Shown: positions 759-55,917 of the stretch, in pieces
Layout of the letters: each line of letters begins with the position of its first letter
How positions within the stretch are numbered: the first letter of the stretch is position 1
NCBI GenBank assembly: GCA_036004805.1
Contig: DASYRB010000022.1
Location: forward strand, 1-59,808
Reading direction: 5' to 3'
Source of the DNA: Candidatus Norongarragalinales archaeon
GTDB lineage: Archaea; Micrarchaeota; Micrarchaeia; Norongarragalinales; DASYRB01
Length of the DNA: 59,808 nucleotides
Notes under the pieces: generated by a model
What the model saw: only the letters and a program-made list of their open reading frames with translations
The model's database searches: none
What the model was told of the DNA's origin: nothing
Position numbers and translations under genes: made by a program

Positions 759-1454
759 TTGCCAACGACCGCAGTCGCAATAATCGGCGCCGCCGGAGCC
801 TCGCGCCGAATGGGGCGAGACAAAAACCTCCTGCACGTCGCCGGGAAAACAGTGCTGGAACACACGGTCCGCGCGTTCGAAAACCATCCAGAAATACAAA
901 GCTACCTCGTTCTCGCTTCCAGAGAAAAAAGAACAGAATACGAAACACTGCTTTCAAAACTCAAGCTCAAAAAATTCTGGAAAGTAATCATCGGAGGAGA
1001 AGAAAGACAGGACTCGATGCGCAACGGTCTTGCACAAATCTCGAAAAACACCGACATCGTAGTATTCCACAACGCCGCCAACCCGCTCGTGACGCCACAA
1101 GAAATTTCTGAAGTAATCAAAGCCGCGAAACAACACGGCGCAGCCGCGGTCGGAGTGCCGGCACGAGACACACTGCGAAGAGTCGACGGCAAAGGATTCT
1201 CTCAAGGCGTCGTGCCGCGCGAGGGAGTTTGGCAAATGCAAACACCACAAGCAATCAAGTACGAACTAGCCGTCGAAGCATTCAACCACGCCTACGCGTC
1301 CAAGGAGCCGTTCAAAGCAACCGACGACGTAGCCCTCGTAGAAAACCTTCACAAACCAGTCGCGATCGTCAAAGCACACCCGCACAACTTCAAAGTCACG
1401 ATTCCCGAAGACATACCAATCGCCGAAGCCGCGCTGCGAGCAAGACAAAAATGA
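759..1454 (+). CDS. ispD: 2-C-methyl-D-erythritol 4-phosphate cytidylyltransferase IspD
   Basis: N-terminal AIIGAAGASRRMG..DKNLL nucleotide-binding motif. Start placed at TTG 759 just after the ispG stop; the track ORF begins earlier, inside ispG. The stop overlaps the ispF ATG. Confidence 0.8.
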   Translation: MPTTAVAIIGAAGASRRMGRDKNLLHVAGKTVLEHTVRAFENHPEIQSYLVLASREKRTEYETLLSKLKLKKFWKVIIGGEERQDSMRNGLAQISKNTDIVVFHNAANPLVTPQEISEVIKAAKQHGAAAVGVPARDTLRRVDGKGFSQGVVPREGVWQMQTPQAIKYELAVEAFNHAYASKEPFKATDDVALVENLHKPVAIVKAHPHNFKVTIPEDIPIAEAALRARQK

Positions 1455-7887: not shown

Positions 7888-8715
7888 ATGGAGCTAGTCT
7901 TCATCGGGATCGGCGGCGGACGTGCAGTCACTGATACTCAAGCCTTCCCAACCGGCGGTTTTCGCATCAATTGCGCTAATTTTCGAATGCACTGCGAACC
8001 CGGACCCGGCGCGCTCGTCAAAAGCATACAATACGGACAAAAACCCTCCAAACTAGACGCCATTTTTGCAAGCCATGCGCACTTGGATCACGCGAACGAC
8101 TTGAACGCGATGATTGAAGCAATGACGTTCCAAAGCAAGTTCAAAGAAGGCGAAGAAAGCAAGAAAGGCGCGCTCTACTGCAGCAAATCCATCACTGACG
8201 GCGCGAAGAACATCGAGCCCGCGCTCGGCGGCTTTTTCAAAAAAATGCTCAAAACCGTCAAAACCCTCAAGCCAGGCGAACAAGTGAAAGTTGCTGACGG
8301 CGTCACGCTGAAAGCCACGAAAGCCATCCACGAAGACCCCGCAACGATCGGATTCATTCTCGACGACAGCGAAACGAGACTCGGCTACACGGGAGACACT
8401 CAACTTTTTCCAGGATTGTTTGAACAGTACGAAGAACTCGACGCGCTCATCGTGAACGTGCTCAAACCCGAAGATCAGAAGTATCCGTTCCACCTCGGCA
8501 TCGACGAGGCCGCGAACGTTTTGAGATCGATGGCGAACAAGCCCAAACAAGCATTCATCAATCACCTGGGCATGAGCTACTTGCGCACCGGGACGAACAC
8601 GCAGGCATCTCGTTTCCAAAAAATCTCCGGCATCAAAACCACCATCGCGCGAGAGTCGCAAGCGTTCCAAATCGGTCCCGAAACCAAGGACAAAGCAAAA
8701 CAAACCAGACTGTGA
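7888..8715 (+). CDS. metallo-beta-lactamase fold hydrolase
   Basis: SHAHLDHANDL (HxHxDH motif). Confidence 0.6.
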   Translation: MELVFIGIGGGRAVTDTQAFPTGGFRINCANFRMHCEPGPGALVKSIQYGQKPSKLDAIFASHAHLDHANDLNAMIEAMTFQSKFKEGEESKKGALYCSKSITDGAKNIEPALGGFFKKMLKTVKTLKPGEQVKVADGVTLKATKAIHEDPATIGFILDDSETRLGYTGDTQLFPGLFEQYEELDALIVNVLKPEDQKYPFHLGIDEAANVLRSMANKPKQAFINHLGMSYLRTGTNTQASRFQKISGIKTTIARESQAFQIGPETKDKAKQTRL

Positions 8716-23730: not shown

Positions 23731-24189
23731 ATGAATGTTTATTTTGTCGAGACGGAGCGCAACGTCACTGAAGTGGTTGCGGTTCTCAAAAAGCAACGCG
23801 TCGAGCCCTTCATCGTCTTGCGACCCGAATTGGCTTGCTTCGACGCTCTCTTAGATTACTCGTTGTTTTTGGCTTATAAGGCTTTTCAGCTCGGAAAACA
23901 ACGCGCACGCGACCTCTCAATACAATGGCTCCTGTATCTGGCAGCGACGCAGCACGTGGACAAAGCGCTGCAATTCACAACCCCGAACGGCAGGGTTTTT
24001 GCGATCGCGAGCGACAAGAAAATTGATGCTAAAACGCTGAAACAAATCGGGAAAGAGAAAGCGTTCACGTGTCCCGCGCATGCGAAAAAGGAAATCGCGA
24101 AGCATTACGGCGTGACGGGTAAAGCGTTGGAGCGTTATGCGCCTGAAGAACTGATTCGCGAAAAAATAGCGATCGCGTCGATGGCTTAG
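23731..24189 (+). CDS. cgi121: KEOPS subunit Cgi121-like protein
   Basis: About 150 aa. The pattern LDYSLFLAYKAFQLGKQRARDLSIQWLLYLAATQHVDKAL matches Cgi121. Confidence 0.5.
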   Translation: MNVYFVETERNVTEVVAVLKKQRVEPFIVLRPELACFDALLDYSLFLAYKAFQLGKQRARDLSIQWLLYLAATQHVDKALQFTTPNGRVFAIASDKKIDAKTLKQIGKEKAFTCPAHAKKEIAKHYGVTGKALERYAPEELIREKIAIASMA

Positions 24190-24902
24190 AGATAGTCGCC
24201 CAGGTCGATCTGCGTCGTCTTCAAACGCTTTATCGTTTCCCACCGGTGCCGCAGGTATTTTTGCAGGCCTGGGTCTTTGTGGTGTTCCTTGAGGAACTTG
24301 ATGGTGCGCTCGTCGTGACTGTAGCCCGTGCCGAAGTCGTAATGCACCTCGCGCTTGATTTCTTCGATGCGCGTATCGCGAGTAACCTTGGCTAGAATTG
24401 AGGCGGCGCCGACGCTGAGGTATTTCACGTCCGCCTTGTTTTCGCACGTGTAATCCTGGTGGTGGTCATAGTATTTGCGCAGGCGTCTCTCGAACTTTCC
24501 GGGAACCGCGTCGGGAGAGTCGATATAGACTTTCTTGAAGTGGCGCGCGCCGCACAAGCGCGTTAGGGCTTCGGCCATCATTTGCGCCTCGAGCTCGTTC
24601 AGTGAAACGCGTTTTTCCATTGCCGTGGTTATTTCGGCCGCGCTGCGTTCGACGATCACGTGTTCTTCTTTGACGAGTATTTTGTAGAGTTTTTCCCTCG
24701 TGGCTTCGGGCAGTAGTTTGCTGTCTTTCACGCCCATTTTCTTGAGTTCTGGCTCGCGTGACTCTTCGATCGCAAAAGCTGCAGCTACGAGCGGACCGAT
24801 GACGGGGCCTCTTGGCAACCAAGAAACAATTGCTTCTCAGTTTCTGCCAGCCTCGTCAACGCCCGCGATGAGGGTTGAAGAGTCAGTATCTCGCCTTTCC
24901 AA
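24186..24902 (-). CDS. rnhB: ribonuclease HII, interrupted by a 33-nt element (exon 1 24844-24902, exon 2 24186-24810)
   Basis: The downstream ORF starts at RGPVIGPLV and contains DSKLL and SVGAASILAKVTRD. Eleven codons upstream, in the same frame, the sequence reads LIAGVDEAGR-N-TGA. Removing 24811-24843 gives GVDEAGRGPVIGPLV. The TTG 24902 start is tentative; TTG 24917 is also possible. Confidence 0.75.
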
Positions 24903-25888
24903 TCTTTTACCTGCCAAACATTGTTGTTTTTGCTAGCAAGTCCAAGTTTATCAAGCTCCGCAAGACGATTGGAAATGGATTTCCGTCCAACATGGAGGAT
25001 TTTAGCGATGTTAGCGACGTTTCTTTCAGAACCAATTAGGTGTAGAATTTGTCTTTTTCGGGCGGAAATTATTACTAAATCCTTTTTCGAGGTCCAGTAA
25101 TCGACGCTGCCTACTCTGAAATTGTTTATTTTGCCTTCTCTCTTTAATTGAATTAGAACGTCTTGCAGTCTTGCTTGCGAGCGCAAGAAATGTTTTGCTA
25201 ATTCATTGCTAGTTTTCGGCTTTTCAAGCATGATGAGCATCCTTTCTCGGATATACTGTTTGGGATAATGTGTTTGTTTGAAAGAATTGTAAGCTTTCCA
25301 AAACCGCGTTTTCTTTTCCGGATGTAAATCGGCAAGATTCAGTCTTGCCCAGGTATCCCAATTTTCTTTGCCAGTGATGACATATGCGCGTTCTCGTTTT
25401 GAGAAGTGGAATCGGATTTTGTAATGATTTAGAATCTGATCTATCAATTCTAGTTGGTGTTTTTGTGCTATTCTAATGGCACGACTGCCGTGCGACCCGG
25501 TCTTGATGTTGCCTTCTCCGGCGAAGAATCCTCGTAAAATTGCGGGGTAGTTTTCTTTATCGGTCTGAATCTGTTTTGAGATGGCTCTCCATTTTTCGCA
25601 AAGTTCGACTGAAGCCACTCTCCACATGAAATAGGGCTTGTTGGCCCTCGAATCCGTATAGTATTTTACATTAGCTCCTAATATTTTCACTTCAGGACGT
25701 TCTGGGTTTGGGCAGTAGACGTAGATCCTTTTCCTTAGATTAGAGTTCTTGAACAGATCGGAAAGAATTTTGTCAAAGAATTCTATGAGTTCGAAAGAAT
25801 TATTGGTAAAAGTAATTTCACGATGAGTTTTGTCATCTCCTTCCGCGAGCCACAAGCCAATGCATTCGGAAATTTCTTTCTGACTCAT
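24785..25888 (-). CDS. free-standing double-motif LAGLIDADG endonuclease-like protein with two C-terminal winged-helix domains
   Basis: LAGLIDADG motifs IGLWLAEGD and LRGFFAGEGN. wHTH-like SNELAKHFLRSQARLQDVLIQLKREGKI and VANIAKILHVGRKSISNRLAELDKLGL. The 3' end overlaps rnhB exon 1 in another frame. Confidence 0.65.
   Translation of the reverse strand: MSQKEISECIGLWLAEGDDKTHREITFTNNSFELIEFFDKILSDLFKNSNLRKRIYVYCPNPERPEVKILGANVKYYTDSRANKPYFMWRVASVELCEKWRAISKQIQTDKENYPAILRGFFAGEGNIKTGSHGSRAIRIAQKHQLELIDQILNHYKIRFHFSKRERAYVITGKENWDTWARLNLADLHPEKKTRFWKAYNSFKQTHYPKQYIRERMLIMLEKPKTSNELAKHFLRSQARLQDVLIQLKREGKINNFRVGSVDYWTSKKDLVIISARKRQILHLIGSERNVANIAKILHVGRKSISNRLAELDKLGLASKNNNVWQVKDWKGEILTLQPSSRALTRLAETEKQLFLGCQEAPSSVRS
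24811..24843 (-). other. candidate bulge-helix-bulge (BHB) intron in rnhB mRNA
   Basis: Outer helix GACGAGGC/GCCCCGTC. Central helix UGGC/GCCA (4 bp). Bulges AGA (5' strand) and AGAG (3' strand). An 11-bp inner helix is closed by an AAUU loop. The element contains the in-frame UGA. Confidence 0.6.
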
Positions 25889-26005
25889 CTCGTGCGTGAG
25901 ATATTTTACCAGTTAAAACCTAACTGAACCCGTGCTCGCCGGTGGCTCAATTTTGTATAAAAAGAAGGAGTGGGGCCAGGGGGATTCGAACCCCCACAAG
26001 CACGT

Positions 26006-26130
26006 GTCTTCGAGCGTTTGTCAACGAACCGCAGATGCGGTTCTCAGAGCTCCAAAGATCCAATCATCGCCCTCCCGAAAGAGGACTCGCTTTTGTTTCC
26101 TAAGCATCTCCTTTGAGGAGAGTTGCTTTA
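26006..26130 (-). other. tRNA-Trp intron
   Basis: This is the sequence between the two halves of the anticodon stem-loop. It contains hairpins AAGCA-AC-UCUCC/GGAGA-UGCUU, CCUC/GAGG and GAACCGC/GCGGUUC. Confidence 0.8.
26044..26069 (-). ncRNA. box C/D-like guide module inside the tRNA-Trp intron
   Basis: CGAUGAU (C-like box, 26063-26069), a 15-nt spacer ending UUGGAGCU, then CUGA (D box, 26044-26047). The spacer pairs with GCUCCAG of the anticodon loop. The fifth nucleotide upstream of box D pairs with C34. Confidence 0.6.
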
Positions 26131-26248
26131 CTGGAGCGTGCTGTCATGCCTGGCTAGACCATAGCCCCTCAAAAATCCGGCTCCCGAAAAGATTGAGTCG
26201 TTTGCTTTCTTTTATGCCTGCCTCTCGAAACCAAGCCCACCGAAACCC

Positions 26249-54753: not shown

Positions 54754-55917
54754 ATGGCGTCCAAGCTAGAACTCGACAACGGCACGTTCTTCGTGCGCGA
54801 CATCGTCGACATCCAAGCACTCGACAGAGGATTCTTCGGCAATTTTCCGCAAGCCAAAAAAGTCCTCATGCGGCTCGCGCCGGAAGAAGCGCTCTACCTC
54901 ATCGACGTACGCAACGCTACCTGCGAGACCAAAAACAAGACGCTCTCGTTCAACCAAGTCGCGCAAGGATTCGCCCGCGCCAAGAAATTCCTCGCTCGCT
55001 ATTTCTGCTACAAAGACTGGCGCGACCGCGGACTCATCGCACGCTCCATCACGGAAGCGAGTGGCAATTACGGCGCCAGCCCACTCGTGAAATATCCATC
55101 ACACGCCTACGAAGCGCCGCGCGTCAAAGCACACGCGTTATGGTTCACGGACGACCTGTTCAGCGTGATCGACGACGAACAACAAGGACGCGCATTGTAC
55201 GACGAAGAGTGGTTCGGACAATACGGCACTTACAAAGCCAAAAAGCACGGCAGGTTCACGAAACTCGACGCGTACGAAACCATCTTCCTCGCCAAACACG
55301 GCGGCATGAAAACAAGCACGCCCATCGCTGCCATCGAGAAGGAAGCGCGAAAGCGACGCAAAGACTTCACGTCGCTCTACGCGGTCTACGAAGACTGGCG
55401 AATGCGCGGCTACGTGCCAAAAACCGGATTCAAGTTCGGCACGCACTTCCGCCTGTATTTCCCAGGCGCGAAACCCGGAGGAGAAACTGACGACTGGGCA
55501 CACAGCAAACACGTGATTCACGTCTTTCCACGCGAAGAAAGGCTGCTCATTAGTGAGTGGGCGCGTGCGATTCGTGTTGCGCACAGCGTAAAGAAAACAT
55601 TCATCCTCGCAATTCCGGGACAAAAGAAAGCGAGCGACAAGGCCGAACTAGACTTCCTGTTATTCCACCGCGAAGGCGACCGCGCAGAAAACCCGAAGAA
55701 CGATAAGCCGAAGTTCGCAATGCTCGCCCTCAGTGAAGAGGAAGAGATTGGCGGTGCAGAACTCGCGGCCGCGATCGAACAAGCACAATCACTCGGCCTA
55801 GACCTGATCCTGAGCATTTGTGACAGGGAAACCAGCGTTACGCACTACCGCGTCAAGCGCATCGAGCTGCCGGGCGCTGTTTTCAAGTATTACGAGATCG
55901 AATGGATTCAGCCCTAG
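54754..55917 (+). CDS. endA: tRNA-splicing endonuclease, long three-unit form
   Basis: One complete catalytic unit (YEDWRMRGYVPKTGFKFGTHFRLYFPG, HSKHVIHV, AHSVKKTFILAI) is preceded by a degenerate unit (YKDWRDRGLIARS). An extra C-terminal unit follows (LILSICDRETSVTHYRVKRI). 387 aa. Confidence 0.8.
   Translation: MASKLELDNGTFFVRDIVDIQALDRGFFGNFPQAKKVLMRLAPEEALYLIDVRNATCETKNKTLSFNQVAQGFARAKKFLARYFCYKDWRDRGLIARSITEASGNYGASPLVKYPSHAYEAPRVKAHALWFTDDLFSVIDDEQQGRALYDEEWFGQYGTYKAKKHGRFTKLDAYETIFLAKHGGMKTSTPIAAIEKEARKRRKDFTSLYAVYEDWRMRGYVPKTGFKFGTHFRLYFPGAKPGGETDDWAHSKHVIHVFPREERLLISEWARAIRVAHSVKKTFILAIPGQKKASDKAELDFLLFHREGDRAENPKNDKPKFAMLALSEEEEIGGAELAAAIEQAQSLGLDLILSICDRETSVTHYRVKRIELPGAVFKYYEIEWIQP

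Follow-up and report, generated by a model that had tools for sequence, protein, structure and literature searches.

The RNase HII gene (rnhB) of a tiny archaeon is interrupted, in the middle of its catalytic motif, by a 33-nt hairpin shaped like the introns that archaeal tRNA-splicing enzymes remove. The insert is best explained as an archaeal bulge-helix-bulge (BHB) intron in the rnhB pre-mRNA, an interpretation that we hold with high confidence although splicing has not been shown at the RNA level. At least 69 distinct rnhB genes carry a 25-43-nt insert at the same codon, and this therefore appears to be a second, previously unreported family of protein-gene introns in archaea. The only archaeal protein-coding gene recognized in the literature as carrying a BHB intron in its coding region is cbf5 of Crenarchaeota, which papers from 2018 to 2025 still say or cite, and no prior report of the rnhB intron was found. 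The stretch of DNA analysed here, referred to as the window, comprises positions 1 to 59,808 of contig DASYRB010000022.1 (assembly GCA_036004805.1, Candidatus Norongarragalinales archaeon).

On the minus strand, the rnhB frame reads TLIAGVDEAGR-N-stop and continues, in the same frame and 11 codons later, with PRGPVIG. The only mechanical open reading frame (ORF) for the body of the gene is 24186-24818 (TTG, 210 aa), which starts at LPRGPVIGPLV. Deletion of the 33 nt (AAACTGAGAAGCAATTGTTTCTTGGTTGCCAAG) gives MERRDTDSSTLIAGVDEAGRGPVIGPLV, thereby restoring the motif DEAGRGPVIGPLV. The spliced product hits the Pfam RNase_HII family (PF01351) over the whole model, including the N-terminal DEAGRG metal-binding motif (E 7.8e-45, model 1-198 of 199), and across the junction the restored IAGVDEAGRGPVIGPLV aligns without a gap to the crystallized RNase HII of P. 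horikoshii (PDB 1uax, E 3.7e-38). Unspliced RNA would yield only a 21-residue peptide, or a protein lacking the catalytic Asp and Glu. However, exon 1 of the window gene has only TTG starts, with no ATG or GTG in frame, and lies entirely inside the 3' tail of the upstream ORF, so that its translation is not assured.

The insert and its flanking exons fold as helix, 4-bp helix and helix, separated by a 3-nt 5' bulge and a 4-nt 3' bulge (Table 1). The fold was reproduced with an MFE of -30.8 kcal/mol (z = -3.39), with 1 of 200 shuffles folding as well. The MFE register is shifted by one base from the register proposed in the first-pass annotation, but its extra pairs are not conserved in the family and the comparative data support the latter. 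Because AGA is repeated at both junctions, four cut registers give the same product, and the exact cleavage sites are inferred from the BHB rule (a cut after the second bulge base) rather than from the product. Furthermore, the structure alone is not beyond chance, as a compact BHB-like hairpin of this quality turns up about 0.6 times per shuffled 60-kb window. A scan of the window with a generic BHB descriptor gave 81 loose hits and is not specific, while the only other compact hit (8031-8070, minus strand) lies antisense inside a genuine metallo-β-lactamase-fold ORF and was rejected as chance. What is beyond chance is the coincidence of the hairpin with exact restoration of the motif and frame, together with the comparative evidence.

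Table 1. Positions of the rnhB exons, the predicted intron and its structural elements, and of the associated splicing features in the window
Feature	Position	Strand	Description
rnhB exon 1	24844-24902	-	TTG start at 24902-24900 (alternative TTG at 24917-24915); encodes M-ERRDTDSSTLIAGVDEAG plus the first two bases (AG) of the Arg codon
Intron	24811-24843	-	33 nt (AAACUGAGAAGCAAUUGUUUCUUGGUUGCCAAG); in-frame TGA at 24839-24837
rnhB exon 2	24186-24810	-	Third base of the Arg codon (A, 24810), then GPVIGPLV... to the stop codon
Outer helix, 5' strand	24850-24857	-	GACGAGGC (codons Asp-Glu-Al(a)); pairs with 24801-24808 (GACGAGGC/GCCCCGTC), 7 pairs plus an A.C mismatch
Central 4-bp helix, 5' strand	24846-24849	-	UGGC (third base of the Ala codon plus the Gly codon); pairs with GCCA at 24813-24816
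5' bulge	24843-24845	-	AGA; predicted cleavage between 24844 and 24843 (AG|A); AG is the end of exon 1 in 52 of 53 carriers
Inner helix	24817-24842	-	11 bp; AACUGAGAAGC (24842-24832) pairs with GUUUCUUGGUU (24827-24817), closed by loop AAUU (24831-24828)
Central 4-bp helix, 3' strand	24813-24816	-	GCCA (intron)
3' bulge	24809-24812	-	AGA plus G (4 nt); predicted cleavage between 24811 and 24810 (AG|A); G24809 unpaired
Outer helix, 3' strand	24801-24808	-	GCCCCGUC (from codons Gly-Pro-Val)
EndA	54754-55917	+	ε2-type (three-unit) RNA-splicing endonuclease, the presumed cleaving enzyme
tRNA-Trp(CCA)	25970-26168	-	125-nt intron at 37/38

Although the window comes from a metagenome-assembled genome, an assembly or sequencing artefact is very unlikely. 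The JGI metagenome contig Ga0376048_0000295 and the Logan contig SRR11742962_119 (run SRR11742962) were made with different pipelines, and both are 100% identical to the window's own contig over 1851 nt, insert included. In addition, dozens of unrelated assemblies show the same architecture.

Same-site inserts with different sequences and lengths are found in many archaeal phyla. In Micrarchaeota relatives, the inserts are 39, 31 and 32 nt long with exons in different frames, and a pattern scan found 42 further loci. In total, there are 53 distinct carriers of 25-43 nt, and 16 additional Asgard loci conform to the same model. A locus search with the window protein alone found no relatives, and an alignment query was needed. 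The carriers come from Micrarchaeota, other DPANN groups, Asgard archaea, Hadarchaeota, Bathyarchaeia, Nitrososphaerales and Methanosarcinales-labelled MAGs. However, most of them were found with a pattern that fixed the exon sequences and many are related Asgard genomes, so the counts are not independent events. No cultured carrier was found among the Thaumarchaeota/Bathyarchaeia relatives or in the complete scan for the Asgard 30-nt form. The first-pass annotation, which proposed a candidate mRNA intron whose removal is needed for rnhB expression, is supported by every test that could be run, but it did not recognize that the intron is not a peculiarity of one genome and instead occupies a widespread, conserved site.

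Every one of the 53 tabulated inserts, and all 16 later Asgard ones, would stop or frameshift translation, with a stop lying within the insert in 50 of the 53. The insert might be regarded as a lesion, either a small insertion or a remnant of a mobile element, with rnhB being a pseudogene or being translated as a truncated protein from the internal TTG. In line with this, gene callers see only an N-terminally truncated ORF, exon 1 has no ATG, and DPANN genomes are reduced and often lose repair genes. Nevertheless, this explanation is very unlikely, as the same interruption is kept across phyla with an open exon 2, an intact exon 1 and preserved catalytic residues. In 51 of 53 other intron-carrying genes, exon 1 has an in-frame start a median of 7 codons before the Asp. 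Random lesions would not recur at one phosphodiester or be compensated, and a protein starting at RGPV would lack the catalytic Asp and Glu of DEAGRG. An intein was also rejected, since the insert has stops and lengths that are not multiples of three, as was a group I or II intron, for which the insert is far too short, and TGA recoding, as other members carry TAA or TAG or shift the frame.

The structure is further supported by strong covariation in the two helices that are not constrained by coding. Across 43 sequences, 87% of cells pair, against 30-47% when the 3' partners are slid, and the covariation score is 0.541 against 0.207 for shuffles, with 0 of 500 reaching it. The central helix is 94% paired with 5 pair types at each variable position: pair 9-31 shows UA, GC, AU, CG and GU, whereas pair 12-28 shows UG, CG, GC, UA and AU. 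The inner-helix ends are 90% paired, and all six tested inner-helix pairs show changes on both sides across lineages. The outer helix, with its constant A.C mismatch, is 81% paired across the family. Interestingly, exon wobble bases are biased toward pairing only in intron carriers, with exon-2 wobble bases pairing with exon 1 in 81-91% of carriers against 52-66% of 137 intron-less genes, and at least 7 of 8 outer positions pairing in 57% against 7% (p = 1.5e-12). The third base of the 3' bulge is A or G in all 53 carriers, as needed for AG+R = Arg, and the predicted junction gives this Arg codon and an open RNase HII frame in 53 of 53 carriers, which is a test of consistency and not of cleavage. 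The extra G of the 3' bulge is the invariant first base of the Gly codon, and this bulge (NNR plus G) is 4 nt in every member instead of the 3 nt of the strict canonical hBHBh' form. The motif is therefore a slightly relaxed BHB, of the kind accepted by broad-specificity EndA types (PMC5829648).

These data also bear on translational bypass as in phage T4 gene 60, in which the ribosome would take off at the AGA codon, skip the hairpin, land on the second AGA and resume at GGC without any RNA processing. The window does contain the formal ingredients of such a bypass, as the take-off and landing codons are both AGA, a stop codon follows closely and the gap forms a hairpin. However, the take-off and landing triplets match in only 8 of 53 carriers, with most 3' sites reading AAA, ATA or TAA. 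Bypass does not predict covariation between exon-1 wobble bases and the 3' end of the insert, nor selection on exon-2 wobble bases for pairing with exon 1, while the geometry is that of an EndA substrate and the enzyme is encoded in the window. Bypass is accordingly considered very improbable.

The insert is precisely absent in close syntenic relatives, with the syntenic orthologue L289 lacking it exactly at the predicted junction. Furthermore, one intron-less gene (P0006) nests at 83-89% identity within an intron-carrying clade. The intron of the window is 79% identical to the 37-nt intron of the Micrarchaeota locus L081, while exon 2 is only 60% identical. A search of metagenome contigs for the window-type intron pattern returned only this already known L081-type intron and one chance match.

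The window also encodes a candidate for the enzyme responsible for cleavage. As proposed in the first-pass annotation, the product of 54754-55917 is an EndA, which matches Pfam tRNA_int_endo (E 5.6e-29) and tRNA_int_endo_N and aligns over residues 14-387 to the ARMAN-2 ε2 EndA (PDB 4fz2, E 5.6e-124), a type described as having broad specificity. The annotated tRNA-Trp intron was likewise confirmed and represents a second EndA substrate in the window, serving as an internal control that the splicing pathway is in use. This tRNA was found only with the intron option of ARAGORN, whereas the default ARAGORN run and Rfam, at both gathering and E<=1 thresholds, found no RNA gene in the window.

In the proposed mechanism, the codons of exon 1 and exon 2 pair to form the outer helix, the last four intron bases before the 3' bulge complete the central helix, and the rest of the intron forms the inner hairpin. 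The ε2-type endonuclease would then cut two bases into each bulge, after which an RNA ligase of the RtcB type would join the exons, so that AG + A makes the Arg codon and the mRNA encodes DEAGRG. Cleavage at those exact phosphodiesters, ligation and the identity of the enzymes acting in vivo are inferred. No RtcB-type ligase was found among the ten large ORFs of the window that were scanned, the exact spliced junction gave no hits in the metagenome contig collection, and no spliced, full-length member was found in the 90% clusters of ten truncated proteins.

It is also conceivable that EndA cleaves the motif mainly for control rather than for simple maturation, with inefficient or conditional ligation gating RNase HII output, or that the excised small, probably circular, RNA has a function of its own. 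The position in the catalytic motif renders unspliced RNA fully non-functional, the intron is more conserved than the neighboring exon between the window and L081, most inserts carry a stop, and splicing of HAC1/XBP1 in eukaryotes shows that endonuclease-ligase splicing can be regulatory. However, nothing in the sequence shows conditionality, and about 85-90% of the archaeal rnhB genes sampled do without the intron, so it is not needed for rnhB function. The higher conservation of the intron can be explained by structural constraint alone on 33 nt, and this alternative is considered unlikely.

The closest known systems include the BHB intron in the cbf5 (pseudouridine synthase) pre-mRNA of Crenarchaeota (Watanabe 2002; Yoshinari 2006; Yokobori 2009, PMC2738675). 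Both are short introns in a protein-coding gene bounded by a BHB motif that is often relaxed, carry a stop or a frameshift, are patchy among related species with gain and loss, are mis-annotated as frameshifted or truncated genes and occur in organisms with broad-specificity EndA. In rnhB, however, the intron sits inside the catalytic motif, whose codons build the outer helix, and its distribution spans DPANN, Asgard, Hadarchaeota, Bathyarchaeia, Nitrososphaerales and others rather than two crenarchaeal orders. Splicing has been shown experimentally for cbf5, but not for rnhB. Archaeal tRNA introns (hBHBh' and relaxed forms) that are cut by EndA and joined by RtcB, including the tRNA-Trp intron of the window, share the motif geometry, a comparable size range and presumably the enzymes, but the rnhB substrate is an mRNA with no tRNA body, has a 4-nt 3' bulge in all members and has exons under protein-coding constraint, so that the outer helix is maintained through synonymous sites. 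The BHB element of Haloferax volcanii HVO_1309 is likewise an mRNA substrate of the splicing endonuclease outside tRNA and rRNA, but lies in the 5' untranslated leader and does not interrupt a reading frame (Schwarz et al. 2020, PMC7714728). In the IRE1-dependent splicing of HAC1/XBP1 mRNA, with ligation by Trl1 or RtcB, a protein endonuclease and an RNA ligase also remove a short structured intron and change the reading frame without a spliceosome. The endonuclease and its recognition motif (paired 7-nt loops) are unrelated to EndA and BHB, and the eukaryotic event is stress-regulated, while no regulation is shown here.

A second family, at a fixed site in a housekeeping repair enzyme and spread over DPANN, Asgard, TACK and euryarchaeal lineages, would show that protein-enzyme mRNA splicing is neither a crenarchaeal curiosity nor a one-gene exception, and its dozens of variants form a natural data set on how EndA types recognize non-tRNA substrates and how such introns are gained and lost. 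More speculatively, and rather unlikely on present evidence, the rnhB intron may be an ancient or horizontally mobile BHB element that persists at this one site because the catalytic-motif codons themselves supply the recognition helix, the same logic by which inteins and homing introns lodge in conserved active sites. In carriers, this would make RNase HII synthesis depend on the tRNA-splicing machinery, giving a built-in and possibly regulated link between RNA-processing capacity and ribonucleotide-excision repair, and its abundance in Asgard archaea would make endonuclease-ligase mRNA splicing a common trait of the lineage closest to eukaryotes.

Finally, about one in ten of the archaeal rnhB genes sampled is currently called as an N-terminally truncated protein lacking its catalytic residues, for example MEM0475196.1 and MFH0973231.1, which misleads metabolic and repair-capacity inferences for MAGs.

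On the minus strand, the rnhB frame reads T L I A G V D E A G R N followed by a TGA stop, and eleven codons further on, in the same frame, it continues as P R G P V I G. The only mechanical ORF for the gene body starts with TTG and begins at LPRGPVIGPLV, whereas removal of the 33-nt insert gives a protein of 227 residues that matches Pfam RNase_HII from model position 1 to 198 of 199 (E 7.8e-45). Furthermore, this product aligns without a gap across the junction to the crystallised Pyrococcus horikoshii enzyme (query IAGVDEAGRGPVIGPLV against VAGVDEAGRGPVIGPLV; 1uax, E 3.7e-38). The first-pass annotation, which described a 33-nt element with an in-frame stop that splits the catalytic DEAGRG motif of RNase HII, is therefore exact, although AGA occurs at both edges, so that four cut registers give the same product, and exon 1 has only TTG starts. 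The JGI contig Ga0376048_0000295 and a Logan assembly of run SRR11742962 are both 100% identical to the window over 1851 nt, including the insert, and an artefact is very unlikely.

Coordinates of the rnhB element and of other features in the window and in related loci
Feature	Sequence	Position	Strand	Size
Mechanical ORF for the rnhB gene body	window	24186-24818	-	210 aa
Insert (predicted intron) in rnhB	window	24811-24843	-	33 nt
Alternative TTG starts of rnhB exon 1	window	24902 or 24917	-	
LAGLIDADG_3 and HTH domain ORF	window	24785-25888	-	367 aa
tRNA-Trp(CCA) with intron	window	25970-26168	-	125 nt (intron)
ε2-type EndA	window	54754-55917		
Second compact BHB-like hairpin	window	8031-8070		
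rnhB hairpin insert (Aenigmatarchaeota)	L228	about 1140-1200		
rnhB hairpin insert (Aenigmatarchaeota)	L238	about 1140-1200		
rnhB intron, apparently shifted by one base	L261	about 1150-1200		

The 71-nt stretch containing the insert folds at -30.8 kcal/mol (z = -3.39) into an outer helix, GACGAGGC/GCCCCGUC, with 7 pairs and one A.C mismatch, a 4-bp helix, UGGC/GCCA, a 3-nt 5' bulge, AGA, an 11-bp inner helix closed by AAUU, and a 4-nt 3' bulge, AGAG. The MFE register is shifted by one base with respect to that proposed in the first-pass annotation, but the comparative data described below support the latter. However, the fold alone is only suggestive, as a custom descriptor for compact BHB-like hairpins finds the rnhB element and one other hit in the window, against a mean of 0.6 per shuffled window. 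This other hit lies antisense within a real metallo-β-lactamase-fold ORF and is chance.

The closest homologues are Micrarchaeota. Thirteen of the 119 homologues listed, plus the window's own truncated call, are gene calls that lack DEAGRG and begin at or just before GPVIGP or at a downstream Met. In public records intron-carrying rnhB genes (e.g. MEM0475196.1 on locus L001, and MFH0973231.1) are deposited as N-terminally truncated 'ribonuclease HII' proteins, or with spurious N-termini, and lack the catalytic DEAGRG. Their DNA shows an insert after the same AG of the Arg codon, which measures 39 nt in L001 (Norongarragalinales), 31 nt in L002/L003 (Micrarchaeota) and 32 nt in L004/L005 (Micrarchaeota); in the last two, exon 1 and exon 2 lie in different frames. 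A pattern scan of one genome per species was then carried out for GACGARGCNGGNAG, an 18-48-nt gap, then GGNYSNGTNNTNGG, and 42 of these are true rnhB genes with a 25-43-nt insert at this site. They are labelled Hadarchaeota, Promethearchaeota, Hodarchaeota, Odinarchaeota, Nitrososphaerales, Bathyarchaeia, Woesearchaeota, Diapherotrites, Nanohalarchaeota, Methanosarcinales, Micrarchaeota or simply uncultured archaeon. Two loci, L015/L224 (labelled Hodarchaeaceae) and L021/L219 (labelled Hadarchaeota), have very similar rnhB N-termini (GPVFGPMVLCGAMF) and similar introns despite being labelled as different phyla, which could reflect mis-binning or gene transfer. In addition, a complete scan for the common 30-nt Asgard form found 35 genomes, all Asgard-lineage MAGs or unnamed archaeal MAGs, of which the 16 new ones fit the structural model.

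Protein-based retrieval, which is independent of the search pattern, showed that in two samples of 80 loci each, 4 and 8 loci carry the intron at the same site, including variants with GAT or DESG codons, while about 85-90% of the sampled genes are intron-less. In one carrier, L261, the intron appears shifted by one base (GGC A|A ... AA|G A GGT), with a central helix CUGG/CCAG, and the result is still AGA = Arg. Interestingly, rnhB of two Aenigmatarchaeota loci, L228 and L238, carries a different short hairpin insert (23 and 20 nt) between the Glu and Ala codons (DE|AGRG), 6 nt upstream of the common site, with a GACG/CGUC 4-bp helix flanked by AAA and AAG. This may be a second intron position in the same motif.

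To test the structure, all carriers were put into one fixed model, in which the last seven bases before exon 2 were taken as the central-helix strand plus a 3-nt bulge, with no per-sequence fitting. On 43 sequences, 87% of cells pair, against 30-47% when the 3' partners are slid by 1-3 columns, and the covariation score is 0.541, against 0.207 in shuffles (0 of 500 reach it). The central helix is 94% paired, and its two variable pairs show UA/GC/AU/CG/GU and UG/CG/GC/UA/AU; synonymous third positions of the Ala and Gly codons thus covary with intron bases. Furthermore, all six pairs at the ends of the inner helix show changes on both sides. These helices were not constrained by the search pattern.

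Among 53 distinct carriers, insert lengths fall into residue classes 28/13/12 modulo 3, 50 inserts contain an in-frame stop, and all 53 give a stop or a frameshift. Exon 1 ends in AG in 52 of them, and the third base of the 3' bulge is A (49) or G (4), which is what AG+R = Arg needs if cuts fall two bases into each bulge. Exon-2 wobble bases that face G residues of exon 1 are C or U in 91%, 87% and 81% of carriers, compared to 58%, 66% and 52% of 137 intron-less genes (Fisher p = 1e-5, 6e-3 and 2e-4), and at least 7 of 8 outer positions pair in 57% of carriers against 7% of intron-less genes (p = 1.5e-12). Many carriers are, however, related, so these are not independent events. Intron-less genes often use CGN for the Arg. 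A translational bypass of the gene-60 type would fit the window itself (AGA...AGA), but it does not fit the 45 of 53 carriers without matching triplets, nor the covariation pattern. Exon 1 is intact, with 51 of 53 carriers having an in-frame start a median of 7 codons before the Asp, against 6 in intron-less genes, and the Gly at -2 is invariant. The alternative that the interrupted gene is a pseudogene is incompatible with the conservation of both exons and of the structure across phyla.

Natural controls are provided by genes that lack the insert. The intron-less gene P0006 has a contiguous DEAGRG in a genomic contig and is 83-89% identical to six intron-carrying genes. Locus L289 is syntenic with the intron-carrying L002, flanked by the same GHMP-kinase and S3Ae genes, and is 76% identical at the nucleotide level, yet it lacks the insert exactly at the predicted junction, has CGC for Arg and has lost the exon-exon complementarity. 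The intron sequence is more conserved than the flanking coding sequence between distant Micrarchaeota, as the window's intron is 79% identical to that of L081 while exon 2 is only 60% identical, and the corresponding values with L090 are 73% against 57%. The comparison with L081 points to shared ancestry and structural constraint. A regulatory role for splicing is possible but unsupported.

Full-text searches, which did not extend to subscription-only literature, gave no paper that combines RNase HII, BHB and intron, and papers from 2009 to 2025 name cbf5 as the only protein-coding case, plus a 5'-UTR element in Haloferax. Although direct RNA evidence is missing, we regard the rnhB insert as a BHB-type pre-mRNA intron, a kind of element already known from cbf5, in a second gene family with a much wider distribution.

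The EndA encoded in the window matches the ε2-type EndA of ARMAN-2 (4fz2) at E 5.6e-124 over almost its full length, and this type is reported to accept relaxed motifs. No RtcB was seen among the ten large ORFs of the window that were scanned. The window also encodes an intron-containing tRNA-Trp(CCA), which default ARAGORN and Rfam both missed. Its intron contains box C/D-like elements (GCGATGATT ... CTGA) and a guide, TGGAGCT, complementary to the anticodon loop AGCTCCA, so that the fifth base upstream of CTGA faces C34, which is the arrangement known for the Cm34 guide in euryarchaeal tRNA-Trp introns. Between tRNA-Trp and rnhB lies an ORF with a LAGLIDADG_3 domain and HTH domains, the last ~118 nt of which overlap rnhB exon 1 and the intron in another frame. 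This ORF is not associated with the intron in other lineages, where the upstream genes differ. Removing the 33 nt is in-frame for this ORF too, so splicing of a co-transcript would delete 11 residues of its tail.
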